This document shows positions 1,058 through 30,475 of a DNA stretch of 31,384 nt, piece after piece; the stretch's first letter is position 1; every line of letters starts with the position of its first letter. The translations under genes were made by a program, and so were the position numbers. Source of the stretch: Patescibacteria group bacterium. GTDB taxonomy: Bacteria; Patescibacteriota; Minisyncoccia; JAHISW01; Tagabacteraceae. The DNA lies in assembly GCA_018817995.1 (NCBI GenBank), contig JAHISW010000046.1, positions 1-31,384 on the forward strand. Reading direction: 5' to 3'. The notes under the pieces were generated by a model, which was not told the origin of the DNA, did not search any database, and was given only the letters and a program-made list of their open reading frames with translations.

Positions 1058-1609
1058 TTACAAACCAAAGTGCTTTTTTAGATGCAACTCGTTATCCAAC
1101 GAATCGGCAATAACAAATCTAACGAACTTTCTAATATTATGGAATTCTATAATATAATCAATTTCCTTTTTACAATCATAGGGATGAATAAAGACACTTT
1201 TTTGAAATTCAAAAAAATCAAGTTTTTTAAGACGGAAACGTAATGCGTCTCTTTCTTTTTTATTAAGCTCAGGAATATCAAACAAAACAATCCTCCATTT
1301 TTTATCCCACTGTTGAGGTTTTTGAATCTCCATTTTATCAAAATCGTAAGATAATGCTCTCTTTTTCCCTCGTTTTGTAAGAGTCATATTGAAAGTTCCA
1401 TCCTTATTCTTTGTTTCTTTAATCATTCCCGCGCCATACAAACTAAAAACAGAACGCTTCAGAGCCCGCCTCTCTATCTCCTCCCAATCTTCCGCCAACC
1501 CTCGTAAAATTTTAAAATAAGTTTTCGGGGACCCGGAAAGACCTAGGACTAAACCTCCAAACAATAGCAATAAAACCTTTTGTTGTATTTCCCCATAACC
1601 TCTCGGCAT
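1058..1609 (-). CDS. PaaX-family-like protein: putative winged-helix N-terminus plus Cas2-like (ferredoxin-fold) domain
   Basis: 183 aa. WDKKWRIVLFDIPE...RDALRFRLKKLDFFEFQKSVFIHPYDC resembles the PaaX central/Cas2-like domain, and ...LTKRGKK fits a wHTH wing. No cas1 or array is in the window. Confidence 0.75.
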   Translation of the reverse strand: MPRGYGEIQQKVLLLLFGGLVLGLSGSPKTYFKILRGLAEDWEEIERRALKRSVFSLYGAGMIKETKNKDGTFNMTLTKRGKKRALSYDFDKMEIQKPQQWDKKWRIVLFDIPELNKKERDALRFRLKKLDFFEFQKSVFIHPYDCKKEIDYIIEFHNIRKFVRFVIADSLDNELHLKKHFGL

Positions 1610-4131: not shown

Positions 4132-4164
4132 TATCTGTGGGACATCGGATATCCCACAAATACA
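4132..4164. repeat. REP-like palindrome A, downstream copy
   Basis: TATCTGTGGGACATCGGATATCCCACAAATACA. Positions 4136-4164 are identical (29 bp) to 4630-4658. Confidence 0.92.
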
Positions 4165-4174
4165 AATACCGGCA

Positions 4175-4837
4175 CTAATCTATCGTAAATTCTCTGATTT
4201 GTTCAAAAGTATTTTTTGCTTTATTTTTGTTCGCACTACAGTCCTTCAAGAATTCATCATATTCATCGTAATCTTTACAATTTGACCACCGGTATGACTG
4301 AAGAAATTTTTTTGCTTTGTGCCAATTTTTAATCCCCTCTTCCTTCCATCTTGTCTCAAAAAGATCTAACGGATTCATATAAATATATTGAACAAGATAA
4401 TTTAAGTACTCGTCTCTATCAATTAAAACCGCCTTGAACTTACCTTGAAATAAAACACCGTCTCTTTCGTATTTTTCATTAAAATATTTCGTATAACCAA
4501 TTCCTAATTTTTGCATAAACTTAGAAATACCACAATCTTCCAGCTGTTCCAGTATTAAATGGAAATGATTCGGCATCAAACAACTACAATGAATCTTAAC
4601 AACTGGCTTCCTATCTTTCTCGTCAATTTTGTGGGACATCGGATATCCCACAAATACAGTGCCCTCTTCCACAATCACACGACGGAAAAGATTTATTGAA
4701 GAATTCCTGTCGTTGAAGTCTCTCAAGCCAAAAAGGAATCTACTATAATCCTTGTCTTCCATAAAAACCTTGCGCTTATCAGTTCCACGATTAAAAATAT
4801 GGTAAAAATGATTATTTGCAAATTTTGGTCTTTTCAT
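4175..4837 (-). CDS. REP-associated tyrosine transposase (RAYT; Y1_Tnp/IS200-like HUH endonuclease)
   Basis: FYHIFNRG, CLMPNHFHLIL (HUH), LFQGKFKA, YIYMNP (catalytic Tyr) and YRWS. Start moved from 4963 to ATG 4837 (MKRPKF), which has TATAAT 7 nt upstream. No tnpB is adjacent. Confidence 0.88.
   Translation of the reverse strand: MKRPKFANNHFYHIFNRGTDKRKVFMEDKDYSRFLFGLRDFNDRNSSINLFRRVIVEEGTVFVGYPMSHKIDEKDRKPVVKIHCSCLMPNHFHLILEQLEDCGISKFMQKLGIGYTKYFNEKYERDGVLFQGKFKAVLIDRDEYLNYLVQYIYMNPLDLFETRWKEEGIKNWHKAKKFLQSYRWSNCKDYDEYDEFLKDCSANKNKAKNTFEQIREFTID
4630..4658. repeat. REP-like palindrome A, in-frame copy inside the RAYT gene
   Basis: TGTGGGACATCGGATATCCCACAAATACA, whose minus strand encodes VFVGYPMSH(K). 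Confidence 0.92.
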
Positions 4838-4860
4838 TGGATTTATTATATACCCTTTTT

Positions 4861-4891
4861 TATCTGTGGGACATCCGATTTCCCACAGATA
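4861..4891. repeat. REP-like palindrome A, upstream copy
   Basis: TATCTGTGGGA-CATCCGATT-TCCCACAGATA, a perfect 11-bp outer stem starting 10 nt upstream of the RAYT -10 box. Confidence 0.92.
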
Positions 4892-13069: not shown

Positions 13070-14311
13070 TCAAATTTCTAGAATATTTGTTTTACAAATC
13101 TTGGCATATTCAAAAGCGCTCGAGCGAATTTTTCTTTCCATATCCCCATAATCAACTTCCACCAAGCCAAACCTGGGCCAAAAACCCTTATCCCATTCAA
13201 AATTATCCAACAATGACCAATAAAAATACCCGCAGACATCTACCCCTTCCTGAATTGCCTTATGAACATAGAACAAGTGCTCTTTTATAAATTTCTCTCT
13301 TTTTTCGTCCTTCGCATCAGCCAATCCATTTTCCATTATATAAATCGGCTTGTTATATTTCTTTAAACCTCTCAAAACATAATAAATTCCTTTCGCATGA
13401 ATTTCCGTATCAGTATCTGTTACTGCTTTATTTTCATTTTGATTATATTTGAAACCCTTGAGAATATTGCGGTAATAATAATTACAACCAATAAAGTCAT
13501 TGAACATTAATGTCCTTTTTAAAAACCAAAAATTCCAAAAACGATTCGCAAAAATTTTTATAATTTTGGCTATTGATCCTTTTGACTCAAAACAGATAGT
13601 GTTATTCGCAAATCCGACTTTTGCCTGAGGATTATTTTTATGAATTATTTTGTACGCATTTTTGTGCGCCTTAACTAAGTTTTTTAAGACTTTCCATGTT
13701 TCCAAAGCACTTTTATGCTGAGGCGGAAATCTATGCGCAAAATATGCATCAAACGCATAAATATCATCCGGCTCATTTAGCGTTATCCAAAAATCAACAT
13801 TACTGCAAGACGTTGTTATTTTTTTTACATATCTTTCAAAATACTTTGGCGCGTCTTTGCAAAGCCACCCACCTTTGTCGCGAAACCAAGTCGGAACCGT
13901 CCAATGCCAAAGCGTAACAAATGGCTCAATCTCCCTCTCTCTCAAGGCGCTTATAACTTTTCTGTAATGCTCAATTTCTTTTTCATCAAACTTCCCTTCT
14001 TCCGGTTCAATCCTTGACCATTCAATTGAAAACCTATGCGCATTGTGCCCAAGTTGTTTTGCAATATCAAAATCTTCGCGAAACCTATTATAATGGTCAC
14101 ACGCTTTCCCCGAAATATAATTTTCTGTCTTTGACATCTCGGGAAATCTTATGAAATCGGGACTCGTAAATTTATTTTTAGATTCTTTCGCCAACCTTTC
14201 GGCGTTTTTCCTTTCCCACTCTGTCCAATCATTAAAATTACCCCCCTCAACTTGATGAGCGGAAGTCGCGCTTCCCCACAAAAACCCTTTTGGAAATTCT
14301 AATTTTATCAT
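13070..14311 (-). CDS. Glycoside hydrolase family 1 (beta-glucosidase/beta-galactosidase)
   Basis: FPKGFLWGSATSAHQVEG, ACDHYNRF, RFSIEWSRIEP, TLNEP (acid/base), IMENG (nucleophile) and WSLLDNFEW. Confidence 0.95.
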   Translation of the reverse strand: MIKLEFPKGFLWGSATSAHQVEGGNFNDWTEWERKNAERLAKESKNKFTSPDFIRFPEMSKTENYISGKACDHYNRFREDFDIAKQLGHNAHRFSIEWSRIEPEEGKFDEKEIEHYRKVISALREREIEPFVTLWHWTVPTWFRDKGGWLCKDAPKYFERYVKKITTSCSNVDFWITLNEPDDIYAFDAYFAHRFPPQHKSALETWKVLKNLVKAHKNAYKIIHKNNPQAKVGFANNTICFESKGSIAKIIKIFANRFWNFWFLKRTLMFNDFIGCNYYYRNILKGFKYNQNENKAVTDTDTEIHAKGIYYVLRGLKKYNKPIYIMENGLADAKDEKREKFIKEHLFYVHKAIQEGVDVCGYFYWSLLDNFEWDKGFWPRFGLVEVDYGDMERKIRSSAFEYAKICKTNILEI

Positions 14312-14326
14312 ATAATTTTATTTTTT

Positions 14327-14353
14327 AACTATGGAAGTTCAACTCCCATAGTT
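14327..14353. repeat. REP-like palindrome B, downstream copy
   Basis: AACTATGGAAGTT-C-AACTCCCATAGTT, 13+1+13 with one mismatch. Confidence 0.92.
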
Positions 14354-14360
14354 GATAGAA

Positions 14361-15068
14361 TCATTCTAAAATGATGTCTTTCATATTCTCTAAATTTCTT
14401 TGAGAATCTTTTAGCCAATCCTTAGTTTCCTTTTTATATTTTTCCTCTCCACCAAAAAAATCCAAAAGAAATTCTCGCTGTGTTACAGACGGAAAATTCT
14501 TTTTTTTAACATAATCAGGAAAACTACTCCATCTATAATTCTCCAAAAACTTCATTTGCCTAACTATGGAAGTTGAACTTCCATAGTTGATTAATTTCAG
14601 TGGGTTTAAGTGAATATAATACGGCAAATGCAAAATATGAGCATGCTCCTCTATTTTAACTGCTTTAAATCTACCCTGAAACAAACTCCCGACTCTCTCA
14701 TATTTCTTATTAAAATAATTTGTATATCCGGTTCCTAGCTTTTGCATAAATTTCACGATCCCTCCCTCTTTTTTCTGCATCAAAAGCAAATGAAAATGAT
14801 TCGGCATTAATGTAAAAATTAATATTTCCACGAGCAATTTTCTTGGTTTCTTTTTTTCTTTCAACTGGTCTAGGTATTGGCTTTCAACTTTCATGGTTTC
14901 GGGATTAAAATAAAAATTCATATTTGATGACAACGCCTCATCATTAAATTCAAATAAATCATGGATAAAACGAAAATAATCCTTATCGTTCATAAATATC
15001 TTTCTTTTCTCCACACCACGATTGTATATATGGTATATTTTGTTGTTTACAAATATTGGCTTCTTCAT
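14361..15068 (-). CDS. REP-associated tyrosine transposase (RAYT; Y1_Tnp/IS200-like HUH endonuclease)
   Basis: IYHIYNRG, TLMPNHFHLLL (HUH), LFQGRFKA, YIHLNP (catalytic Tyr) and YRWSS. TATAAT lies 8 nt upstream of the ATG. Confidence 0.9.
   Translation of the reverse strand: MKKPIFVNNKIYHIYNRGVEKRKIFMNDKDYFRFIHDLFEFNDEALSSNMNFYFNPETMKVESQYLDQLKEKKKPRKLLVEILIFTLMPNHFHLLLMQKKEGGIVKFMQKLGTGYTNYFNKKYERVGSLFQGRFKAVKIEEHAHILHLPYYIHLNPLKLINYGSSTSIVRQMKFLENYRWSSFPDYVKKKNFPSVTQREFLLDFFGGEEKYKKETKDWLKDSQRNLENMKDIILE
14562..14588. repeat. REP-like palindrome B, in-frame copy inside the RAYT gene
   Basis: AACTATGGAAGTT-G-AACTTCCATAGTT, perfect. The minus strand encodes NYGSSTSIV just after YIHLNP. Confidence 0.93.
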
Positions 15069-15083
15069 GCACTATAATTATAC

Positions 15084-15110
15084 AACTATGGAAGTTCAAC
15101 TTCCATAGTT
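15084..15110. repeat. REP-like palindrome B, upstream copy
   Basis: AACTATGGAAGTT-C-AACTTCCATAGTT, perfect. It is 1 nt from the -10 box (15077-15082) and 3 nt from the upstream gene's stop codon. Confidence 0.93.
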
Positions 15111-15113
15111 GAT

Positions 15114-16106
15114 TTATTTGTTAATTGTTGATTTAACTAACTCCCACATTTCTGGATGGCCATTTTCTTTCAGCCAATACCACCATTCAACGCCCCATAA
15201 ATAGAAAGTATCAAAACCAGTGCCTTCAATATATTCCATCAATTCCTTAAATTTTTCAGGATTCATAGATACAAACTGTTCGTTTATATCCAAATCTTGA
15301 ATAAGCATCGGCCCCCACGGTTCTGCTTGTAGCTCAATTACAACGGAAGGTTTTTTGCCATATATAAAATCAATTATTCCGAGTTTCAGACGAAAAAAAG
15401 AAGGGGGAATGGGATATTTAAAATAACCAATCGTATCATTCCAGATGGTTCTATACATTGTTGTTCCAAAAATATCCGCCCGCTTATATGCTCTTGCCCA
15501 ATCGCCAAACTCCCCGCCATCCGTGATAATAATTGGTTTAGACGACAAAGATTTCACAAGTTTAATCTCCCCGTCCAAAAATTCTTTGTCTAATTCCGGA
15601 CATTCTCCAAAATTCAAAAACGGCTCGTTCTCCACCTGCCACGCCCAAACCGCAAAACTATCATCGTATCGTTTAACCGTCGTTTTAATATAATCCAGCA
15701 ATTTTTGAGATTTGATTTTTGAGATTTGAGATTGAACCCAAGTGGGTTCATGGCATTCCGGCCACCTCGGAACTTTTCTTCCCACAACCAAGACAACGTT
15801 TGCATTATGCGCTTCGGCAACTTCCATCATCCAGTCGGTGGACGAAAAATCAAACACGCCCTCTTCCCTTTCAACCTCGCTCCAATAAATAGGTATTCTG
15901 ATTAAATCAAAGCCCAAATCTTCAAAAATAGCTTCATAGGCTTTTTGCCAATCCAACCCCAAATCTTCTGCTTGAATTTTTGAATATGTCACCCCAAAAA
16001 TTTTTACTTCGGTTTGCGGTATCCTACAAACAAAAAAACAAATAACGCAAACAAGAAACGCAACGGCAATTATTAAAAAAATTAAAATTTTTTTTCTAAG
16101 TTTCAT
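15114..16106 (-). CDS. Membrane-anchored clan GH-A glycoside hydrolase (beta-galactosidase/GH42-GH5-like)
   Basis: N-terminal anchor, RIPIYWSEVE..EGVFDFS..DW, AWQVENEP (acid/base-like) and ELQAEPW (nucleophile-like). Exact family uncertain. Confidence 0.65.
   Translation of the reverse strand: MKLRKKILIFLIIAVAFLVCVICFFVCRIPQTEVKIFGVTYSKIQAEDLGLDWQKAYEAIFEDLGFDLIRIPIYWSEVEREEGVFDFSSTDWMMEVAEAHNANVVLVVGRKVPRWPECHEPTWVQSQISKIKSQKLLDYIKTTVKRYDDSFAVWAWQVENEPFLNFGECPELDKEFLDGEIKLVKSLSSKPIIITDGGEFGDWARAYKRADIFGTTMYRTIWNDTIGYFKYPIPPSFFRLKLGIIDFIYGKKPSVVIELQAEPWGPMLIQDLDINEQFVSMNPEKFKELMEYIEGTGFDTFYLWGVEWWYWLKENGHPEMWELVKSTINK
15703..15730. repeat. Degenerate 7-bp tandem tract, in-frame
   Basis: TTTTGAG ATTTGAT TTTTGAG ATTTGAG, encoding SQISKIKSQK. 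Confidence 0.75.
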
Positions 16107-26395: not shown

Positions 26396-26426
26396 GAGAT
26401 CCGATCTCTGGAGGAGATCGGATCTC
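26396..26426. repeat. Orphan nested palindrome (perfect 13-bp stem; each arm itself palindromic)
   Basis: GAGATCCGATCTC-TGGAG-GAGATCGGATCTC. Confidence 0.85.
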
Positions 26427-26436
26427 CAAACATTAA

Positions 26437-26464
26437 TAATTCATAACTCCAAATTCATAATTCA
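26437..26464. repeat. Degenerate 7-bp tandem tract spanning a stop codon
   Basis: TAATTCA TAACTCC AAATTCA TAATTCA. The TGA of ORF 26455..27693 is inside the third unit. Confidence 0.65.
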
Positions 26465-27693
26465 ATATATCCTTTCTCAAAATTATCTATAATCATTTCC
26501 TCCATTTTTTCCTCGCTACCGACAATCTCAGAGAATATCTCATTCCAAAGCGCTTCCTGGTGATGATAAAGATATTTAATCATCTCCTTTCTTCTAACCA
26601 AAGACATAACGGTGTCAACCAAATTAAAACTCACCAAAACATCCGCCCCCGCGCCGGTTGGATAAAAATCGCCCACAAAACCAACATCCCTCCAAAAACT
26701 CAAATCAACACTGTCAACAATACCACCTATTTTACTTATGCCATCCTCCGTTTTTTTCCAATGGACCGCTTCTGGATTTACATGTGGCTCGAAAAGACGC
26801 CAATCGTTCTCGTCATCTTTGGCCAAGTATCTTTGAACTATCATCCATTTTTTGCCCAAATCCGCCTCTGGAACTTTTTCATCAGGAACATCTCCTCTCA
26901 AAAAACCCACCAAACGTTCCGCAAAATTGTCTTTGTCGGAATGTTTTCTGAACAATTTTGAGTAAAAATCTATTTCATACCTGTAGTGCAAGACCAAGGC
27001 GGCCGTCCGTAAAGTCTCTCCTTTTATTCCAAGGACTGCCGGTAAAACAAAGATCACTCCCAGTTCCTTCAAGTGGCTTATGTTATGGTACTTTTTCTTG
27101 AGAAATTTTTCAGCCACATCTTTCCACCTATCGCCCAGAACAATCATTTTAATTTCCCTCTCCTCAAAATCTTCAGGAATCAGTTTCTCATATTGCTTGA
27201 AAAAAATATTATTAAGCCATTCTCCGTCTTCCATAAAACGTAAAGCGCTGAAAATTTCAAAAACATTTTCATTTTCCAGCAAATCGCCCATATTCCCATA
27301 GCCCAGTCCCCTTAAAATATTTTTCGGAGGAACGTCAAAAAGAAGTTCCTTGGCTTTCTCTTCTTTAATAAAAAAACCTTTGCCGACACCGGCCGCTCTT
27401 TCAACAGCATCAAGCAAACCGCGACAGCCCTTTTCCGTATCGCAAACAGGCCGGTTTAACGCTTCCGATAATTTTTTGTCGTCCTCCTCAACCTTGTTTA
27501 ACAAAAACCTGTAAATGTCAGAAGCGCCACGCGTTTTGGGAGATAAAACAGATAATTTTGCCTCTATTATTCTTTCATTTTCTTCAACAATTTTTCTTAC
27601 AACATCTTCTCTCACGGTGGCAACCGTATCTTTATCCGCCCTTAAAATACGAGCTATTTTTTTGTAATAATTTATGCTTGTGTCATTCGCCAT
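26455..27693 (-). CDS. Hypothetical protein (412 aa)
   Basis: Long open frame with globular-looking composition (SHLKELGV, FEPHVNPEA.HW, YLYHHQEALWN). No family recognised. Confidence 0.65.
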   Translation of the reverse strand: MANDTSINYYKKIARILRADKDTVATVREDVVRKIVEENERIIEAKLSVLSPKTRGASDIYRFLLNKVEEDDKKLSEALNRPVCDTEKGCRGLLDAVERAAGVGKGFFIKEEKAKELLFDVPPKNILRGLGYGNMGDLLENENVFEIFSALRFMEDGEWLNNIFFKQYEKLIPEDFEEREIKMIVLGDRWKDVAEKFLKKKYHNISHLKELGVIFVLPAVLGIKGETLRTAALVLHYRYEIDFYSKLFRKHSDKDNFAERLVGFLRGDVPDEKVPEADLGKKWMIVQRYLAKDDENDWRLFEPHVNPEAVHWKKTEDGISKIGGIVDSVDLSFWRDVGFVGDFYPTGAGADVLVSFNLVDTVMSLVRRKEMIKYLYHHQEALWNEIFSEIVGSEEKMEEMIIDNFEKGYIEL

Positions 27694-30268: not shown

Positions 30269-30475
30269 CTATTTTTTCTTTCGGCGAACAGTCTTTCTCT
30301 TCGCAGGTTTCTTGGTTGCCTTCTTTACCGCTTTTCTCTTCGCGGGTTTTCTCTTCGCTACTTTTCTCTTCGTGGTCTTTTTCACTACCTTCTTCTTTGC
30401 TGTCTTTTTTGCCGCTTTTCTCTTTGCGGGTTTTCTCTTAGCTACTTTTTTTGCTGCTTTTTTACGTTTAACCAT
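30269..30475 (-). CDS. Lys/Arg/Ala-rich histone-H1-like basic protein
   Basis: 68 aa with no acidic residues and repeated AKRKP/AKRKA/VKK units. Has its own terminator. Confidence 0.7.
   Translation of the reverse strand: MVKRKKAAKKVAKRKPAKRKAAKKTAKKKVVKKTTKRKVAKRKPAKRKAVKKATKKPAKRKTVRRKKK

Follow-up and report, generated by a model that had tools for sequence, protein, structure and literature searches.

A REP/RAYT-type module in a Patescibacteria genome with its palindrome in frame inside the enzyme gene

Why should a small gene for a Y1/HUH enzyme carry the same palindrome three times, once at its promoter, once in frame within its coding sequence and once just past its stop codon? The locus that raises this question lies in a 31,384-nt stretch of DNA (hereafter the window; contig JAHISW010000046.1 of assembly GCA_018817995.1) from a Patescibacteria group bacterium, the assembly of which is 0.7 Mb at 38% GC. 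A preliminary description, made from the letters of the window, had claimed this three-copy layout at the gene that we call gene 2. We could confirm all of its coordinates as well as the reading frame, and the features are as follows.

14361..15068, minus strand: RAYT-like Y1/HUH gene 2 (P0001, 235 aa), with the HUH motif at H91/H93 and the catalytic Tyr151
14361-14363, minus strand: TGA stop codon of gene 2
15077..15082, minus strand: predicted TATAAT -10 box of gene 2, 8 nt before the ATG
15083..15111, no strand: palindrome B, upstream copy, 29 nt including an outer C-G pair (27-nt core at 15084-15110)
14562..14588, no strand: palindrome B, internal in-frame copy, codons 161-169 (NYGSSTSIV), site 2
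14327..14353, no strand: palindrome B, downstream copy, with one arm mismatch, 7 nt past the gene 2 stop

Palindrome B is a 27-mer with arms AACTATGGAAGTT around a central C or G, and it occurs three times in the window. In 100 dinucleotide-preserving shuffles the number of matches was 0. Chance had been called unlikely on the strength of two such loci; the shuffles agree with this, and the layout proved to be family-wide, well beyond two occurrences. We conclude that the feature at gene 2 is real and non-random. No long ORF other than gene 2 lies between the outer copies. The preceding gene (15114..16106) stops 2 nt before the upstream copy, which directly adjoins the TATAAT and occupies the -35/spacer position of the predicted promoter, and the downstream copy is followed after 15 nt by the ATG of the next gene (13070..14311). 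There was no Shine-Dalgarno motif near the ATG of gene 2. The internal copy directly follows the YYIHLNP helix bearing the invariant Tyr151, and encodes the linker to the C-terminal region. In another genus, the slot between the same two neighbours (13070-14311 and 15114-16106) was filled by a very divergent RAYT-like gene (L046), 34% identical to gene 2; this slot is either old and fast-evolving, or it was refilled.

The gene 2 protein scored 34.3 bits against Pfam Y1_Tnp (cutoff 23), and the protein of gene 1, the second RAYT-like gene of the window, was also above this cutoff. Against the NCBIfam equivalog for REP-associated tyrosine transposases (NF047646), scores were 35.7 and 39.7 bits, below the cutoff of 80, and a search of the PDB by sequence profile gave no match at E 0.01. 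These low scores and the blank profile search indicate that the family is a distant branch. Homologues are annotated, for example, as "transposase [Patescibacteria group bacterium]". In an alignment of 76 family sequences, the HFH at residues 91-93 (H91, H93) and Y151 were invariant. An AlphaFold (AF2) model built from this 76-member alignment had a mean pLDDT of 88.8, and its top Foldseek match was 4ER8, the E. coli TnpA-REP bound to a REP hairpin (E 4.6e-6). The VIA alignment of the model with 4ER8_A gave a Z of 15.8 and an rmsd of 2.6 over 157/165 residues; the next best was the IS608 TnpA, with a Z of 9.6. Going by the modelled fold, the gene 2 protein is a distant but structurally clear RAYT-type enzyme, and the gene would encode a single-strand DNA nuclease/transferase of the TnpA-REP Y1/HUH type.

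The model also placed the two positions at which internal palindromes are found. Site 1 is a low-confidence stretch (residues 45-78) before the HUH strand, and site 2 is a coil (160-167) between the Tyr helix and the C-terminal helices. Both fall in poorly conserved, lower-confidence parts of the protein by alignment and by AF2 model, in keeping with the earlier claim that the sites lie in permissive loops. The site 2 palindrome adds no length to the protein and takes the place of a conserved EPxWKExGI segment, so simple insertion is not the whole story. We also considered an origin of the C-terminal domain by read-through of a former 3' REP. This was rejected, since relatives lacking the site 2 palindrome have the same C-terminal region, including the conserved EPxWKExGI.

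Gene 1 is 49% identical to gene 2, and shows the same architecture with a different palindrome, palindrome A, whose arms are TGTGGGAYATC.

4175..4837, minus strand: RAYT-like gene 1 (220 aa from the ATG at 4837, a start chosen to match homologues)
4861..4891, no strand: palindrome A, upstream copy
4628..4654, no strand: palindrome A, internal in-frame copy, codons 62-70 (FVGYPMSHK), in the variable region before the HUH strand (site 1)
4134..4160, no strand: palindrome A, downstream copy, 14-16 nt past the gene 1 stop

A TATAAT is present at 4845-4850, 7 nt before the gene 1 ATG. The internal copy is at a different position in the two proteins (residues 62-70 in gene 1, 161-169 in gene 2), and neither palindrome was present at the other locus, exactly as had been described. 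That the palindromes are of odd length with a central C/G was correct for genes 1 and 2, but does not extend to the whole family, some relatives having a central A or T. The 235-nt spacing common to genes 1 and 2 is explained by how the protein is laid out, and we take it to be coincidental. The window has other repeats as well: at 26405-26436, in the gap before gene 26455..27693, a degenerate sequence related to palindrome A (69% relative to its reference copy); a 39-nt direct repeat (95% identical) at 1016-1054 and 1642-1680 around gene 1058..1609, which is unrelated to RAYT, yet is bracketed with the same geometry as the RAYT genes; and, at 30309-30449, four overlapping copies of a 57-nt direct repeat, offset by 15 nt within a pair and 54 nt between pairs, in a C/T-rich region overlapped by ORFs on both strands.

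When we examined the whole genome, we found at least nine RAYT-like paralogs, the closest to gene 2 at 74-78% identity. Near-identical gene copies were absent (<=78% identity), and each enzyme gene is therefore single-copy. One-base-loop palindromes with arms of at least 11 numbered 99, compared to 5 in a shuffled genome. About 75 of the 99 fell in families each matching one paralog, with approximately 10 copies per family, which is low for REPs. Exact or near-exact copies of palindrome B were present on 8 other contigs, and copies of palindrome A on at least 6. The outer arm was clade-typical (CAACTAT, TCTGTGGGA or ACTTGG), and the inner arm differed by family, with changes matched on both sides. 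Each paralog was bracketed by one palindrome family, and the three-copy layout was repeated, with the gene's own palindrome variant, in the paralogs on C79, C15, C94 and C63. RAYT ORFs account for only about 0.8% of the genome but contained seven of the approximately 75 family palindromes, almost all seven being of the gene's own family.

Paralogs bracketed by cognate palindromes, together with dispersed matching families, make this a REP/RAYT system by definition. The suggestion that the locus is an undescribed system did not hold up in this respect: the fold, the flanking copies and the dispersed families identify it as a REP/RAYT (REPtron-type) module. Elsewhere in the same genome (C24:3100-4540), six palindromes of three families (B1, B3+A1, B1, B3+A1) had a BIME-like arrangement and bracketed two tandem small paralogous genes of 154 and 143 aa.

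We surveyed 41 genomes of the same class. The gene was found in 23 of them with 1-9 matches each (matches, not copy numbers), and 73 loci from these 23 gene-bearing genomes were examined. Most of the 73 loci were flanked on both sides by one palindrome. Cognate internal copies were confined to site 1 in 14 loci and to site 2 in 10, and a further 4 loci had one at each site, giving three- and four-copy loci; the total of at least 28 is a lower bound, since a few more fell outside the loop-length rule. Internal copies matched the flanks of their own locus at 9 or more of the 10 loop-adjacent bases in 91% of cases, as against 2.2% with the flanks of other loci. The centre was the second codon base in 27 of 33 internal copies, so that the 27-mer starts on a codon boundary. 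Among relatives the loop was 1 to 5 nt long, and sequence beyond the palindromes was not conserved. The centre base was random, and an orientation rule for the flank copies was rejected on this ground. Two loci (L002 and L030) had a downstream copy of another type.

At the protein level, 65 of the 120 closest homologues in the large database had a reverse-complement-symmetric 9-mer peptide at residues 150-170, one whose codons can pair as reverse complements, and almost none had one elsewhere in the protein. The peptides themselves varied (NYGSSTSIV, NYRGSTSIV, NYQHR-LIV, IYGSSTSID, HYRGSTSIM) with the DNA symmetry kept, the reverse of a peptide conserved without DNA palindromy. In a tree with the palindrome-coded residues masked, one or more internal copies were retained by 22 of the 23 members of three clades, and the 10 loci of one deep clade had flank copies only. 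Stop codons in the palindrome type were considered as a general cause of a missing internal copy and rejected, since most types are open in some phase. The outer arms followed the protein clades of this tree and each paralog had its own palindrome family, which supports the proposal of paired enzyme/site modules. The enzymes may have orthogonal binding specificities.

Compensatory changes in the two arms fit a duplex dimer site as well as a hairpin. The palindrome could accordingly be a duplex DNA site bound by a dimer, whether of the RAYT-like protein through its C-terminal helical part or of another factor, rather than a single-strand hairpin; the perfect symmetry, the lack of an asymmetric tag and the freely varying centre base would all suit such a site. 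We consider this quite improbable, because the closest structure (4ER8) is a monomer on a hairpin, the loop differs in length from 1 to 5 nt between relatives, and about ten dispersed copies per family, some within coding genes, are typical of REPs and not of operators.

How the internal copy relates to the flanks could be followed at the orthologous loci of gene 1, whose neighbours are retained in a second genus and, in one case, in a third. The upstream, internal and downstream copies were all GGGAYATC, GGGAAGTT or TTGGAYATC, depending on the genome, and across genera the internal copy was always at residues 62-70. At two loci (L005 and L006) the flank type is now CTAGTGAGG, which in the site 2 frame would read TAG and TGA. 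Here the site 2 copy was half-updated, with the new 3' arm and the old 5' arm, and a full cognate copy was present at site 1, in another phase. We also observed internal copies with TATCGA where the flank type is TATTGA, which would put a TGA in frame. As read from these sequences, the internal copy changes together with the flanks, and fails to match them only where the flank type would introduce a stop. Such concerted change points to an active renewal process.

Members of the same palindrome families were also found within the open frames of genes that appear to encode IscS/NifS, UvrD/PcrA, TatD, GatA, ComF and prepilin peptidase.

C25:8320-9489 (L068), C78:5396-7357 (L067), C66:1324-2316 (L069), C29:1844-2581 (L070), C39:528-1724 (L071) and C4:10393-11844: in-frame palindromes in IscS-, UvrD-, TatD-, ComF- and GatA-like genes

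The IscS and UvrD genes were compared in eight genomes of the family (G000 and seven sister genera). The IscS loop had an A-type palindrome with different inner arms in three of the eight, a different palindrome in one and none in four, and the UvrD loop had a B-type palindrome in three of the eight. The sister-genus orthologues of both thus had, at the same loop, a palindrome with other inner arms or none. These copies persist across genera with no plausible self-regulatory role, and persistence alone is therefore no proof of function; it follows as well that a cis bias is not needed for the survival of in-frame copies. In-frame life is general for these palindromes, and the enzyme's own gene is a special, enriched case.

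To place the upstream copy relative to the promoter, we looked at 70 loci. A TATAAT-like hexamer (at least 5/6 positions) ending 6-9 nt before the ATG was present in 41 of them, compared to 1/70 in a control window further upstream, and SD-like motifs were seen in 0/70. With the -10 box so close to the ATG and no SD, a leaderless mRNA is predicted, with the palindrome as the -35/spacer region, by geometry only. The upstream palindrome ended 0-13 nt before the -10 box in most loci. The overlap of this copy with the promoter, part of the original claim, is hence confirmed against the predicted core promoter in most relatives. Autorepression via the promoter copy is plausible on this arrangement: binding there would repress the gene, and the internal copy might serve as a second operator.

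It may be asked if the palindromes are, more than this, a functional set of operators, by which the enzyme represses its own gene, the promoter copy blocking RNA polymerase and the internal copy, kept by selection, acting as a roadblock or second operator. The promoter geometry speaks for this, as does the retention of an internal copy by 22 of 23 members of three clades, which could mean functional selection and not a by-product. Internal copies are as perfect as the flank copies, and in L005 and L006 the lost or decayed site 2 copy is accompanied by a new site 1 copy. The E. coli TnpA-REP is, moreover, tightly self-inhibited, strong down-regulation being a theme of the family (PMC3479197). 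However, a whole deep clade (10 loci) does with flanks only, and the same palindromes persist in frame in the IscS and UvrD loops, where autoregulation is inapplicable. We regard a functional operator set as possible, though doubtful.

In E. coli, REPs have an established role in stabilising the 3' ends of mRNAs. An element acting at the RNA level, with the internal and 3' copies folding in the mRNA to control its stability or translation, would be a further explanation, and these two hairpins are indeed predicted to be the strongest local structures in the gene 2 mRNA (approximately -15 kcal/mol each). Against this, a leaderless start would leave the upstream copy untranscribed from the gene's own promoter (predicted), and there was no U tract after either hairpin. 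Arm mismatches on the sense strand were G-T in 4 and A-C in 8 cases for the internal copies, and similarly for the downstream ones, with no sign of selection on an RNA fold; as a means of telling the strand under selection, these mismatch counts (4 vs 8) proved uninformative and were abandoned. An RNA-level role for the palindromes thus seems very unlikely. One identical 148-nt contig from an RNA library, at 14384-14531, is at most a weak hint that gene 2 is transcribed.

Yet another possibility is a programmed switch. Flipping the palindrome would replace a central TCA by TGA, and the enzyme would then be truncated and de-repressed; alternatively, the copies could mark swaps of segments between paralogs in a cassette exchange. 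In 13 of 33 internal copies, flipping would place a stop codon at the centre, two loci (L002 and L030) carry a downstream copy of another type, and C-terminal truncation makes the E. coli TnpA-REP hyperactive (PMC3479197). Yet most families would gain no stop upon flipping, there was no flipped copy and no internal stop in 77 matches from 41 genomes, and the Logan contigs of four runs contained no centre variant or credible junction (one joint, whose shorter side is only 24 nt, was set aside). We would give a switch or cassette exchange hardly any weight. An apparent stop inside the palindrome of P0203, a truncated representative, was discarded because the contig ends in Illumina adapter. The end of a public metagenome contig at L088:1632-1665 is Illumina adapter and creates a false stop in a RAYT-like gene, which has upstream and site 1 internal copies of its own palindrome. 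In two independent metagenomes, Logan contigs end and restart exactly at the three palindromes (14564-14592 and 15085-15112 among the break points), as repeats do, so that assemblies of such genomes tend to fragment at RAYT modules.

Together, these observations have led us to favour, as the probable explanation, a REP/RAYT module in which the enzyme's own site is copied and homogenised with a cis bias, the outcome being filtered by what the protein tolerates. By analogy with its homologue TnpA-REP, the enzyme would recognise the hairpin form of its own 27-31 nt palindrome, with an outer stem that is conserved within the protein clade and an inner stem specific to the paralog. It would spread and renew this palindrome as a small dispersed REP family. 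Nascent enzyme, being next to its own transcribed and transiently single-stranded gene, would most likely act in cis, and an enzyme acting mostly near its own gene would strike that gene far more often than others. Internal copies would then survive only in the two poorly conserved regions and only in stop-free phases, and ongoing copying and homogenising would keep them identical to the flanks.

A more far-reaching reading, which we think unlikely, gives the internal copy a function as a site. During transcription or replication, the hairpin formed by the gene's coding DNA would be bound by the enzyme, which would thereby throttle its own synthesis. The enzyme would also catalyse exchange of the inner hairpin, with the conserved outer arms left as they are, and in this way renew REPs everywhere in place, those in essential genes included. 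If true, this exchange would keep both length and frame, would amount to a kind of DNA mobility that has not been described for Y1 transposases, and would explain the long-term life of a mobile element within coding sequence.

For the question of what RAYTs do, the module is conveniently compact: 0.8 kb hold the enzyme together with its site and a probable regulatory layout, the hosts have minimal genomes, and there are many naturally diverged enzyme/site pairs. The nine codons of the internal copy are under a dual constraint, DNA pairing and a tolerated peptide, and provide a clean readout of the maintenance of a DNA structure. The renewal process that the concerted change implies could be reconstituted in vitro, and sets of HUH enzymes with distinct hairpin specificities would be useful as orthogonal covalent protein-DNA tags. 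The in-frame REPs in IscS, UvrD and other core genes suggest that mobile palindromes shape protein loops in these bacteria.

REPtrons with flanking REPs, several enzyme/REP pairs per genome, compensatory stem changes and vertical inheritance have been described (PMC2817692, PMC3333891, PMC8266576), and the E. coli TnpA-REP is inhibited by its own C-terminus (PMC3479197). The locus studied here resembles the REPtrons of E. coli (yafM, PDB 4ER8), Stenotrophomonas and Pseudomonas in the Y1/HUH fold, for which they give the best structural match (Z 15.8), in a single-copy enzyme gene bracketed by a genome-dispersed palindrome family with several pairs per genome, in compensatory stem changes, and in vertical inheritance at a syntenic locus (gene 1, in two other genera). 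What sets it apart from them is that the enzyme's own reading frame takes in the palindrome, which is thus translated, at one or two fixed loops. In addition, the palindromes are symmetric to the last base and lack the 5' GTAG/CGTC head that E. coli-type REPs need; recognition may therefore differ from that of E. coli-type REPs, although such a tag may be hidden within the outer stem. Families have about 10 copies instead of hundreds, many of them intragenic, so that the term 'extragenic' is inapplicable; the protein scores below the NCBIfam equivalog cutoff; and the host is a member of the Patescibacteria with a genome of 0.5-1 Mb. In the literature that we searched, the coverage of which was partial, we came across no REP placed within the reading frame of a RAYT, no REP/RAYT system from Patescibacteria and no symmetric untagged palindromes of this kind.

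With the IS200/IS605 elements (the TnpA of IS608 and ISDra2, with subterminal hairpins at LE and RE), the module shares a Y1/HUH gene bordered by hairpins, recognition on single-stranded DNA being a property of the IS enzymes. It lacks multiple near-identical element copies, as the paralogs are at most 78% identical, and the structural similarity is lower (Z 9.6 for the IS608 TnpA). The hairpins are identical perfect palindromes and not distinct left and right ends, and the IS200/IS605 elements do not have an internal copy.

Rickettsia palindromic elements (RPEs), of approximately 100-150 bp, lie in frame within protein-coding genes and are tolerated at surface loops of housekeeping proteins. 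We know of no cognate enzyme for them. They are the nearest parallel for in-frame palindromes, though unrelated in sequence, and are mentioned in PMC1779305. The element described here is only 27-31 nt long, and is paired with a RAYT whose own gene carries it. With respect to these known systems, the novelty lies in the host group and in the internal copy, which is in frame and changes in concert with the flanks.
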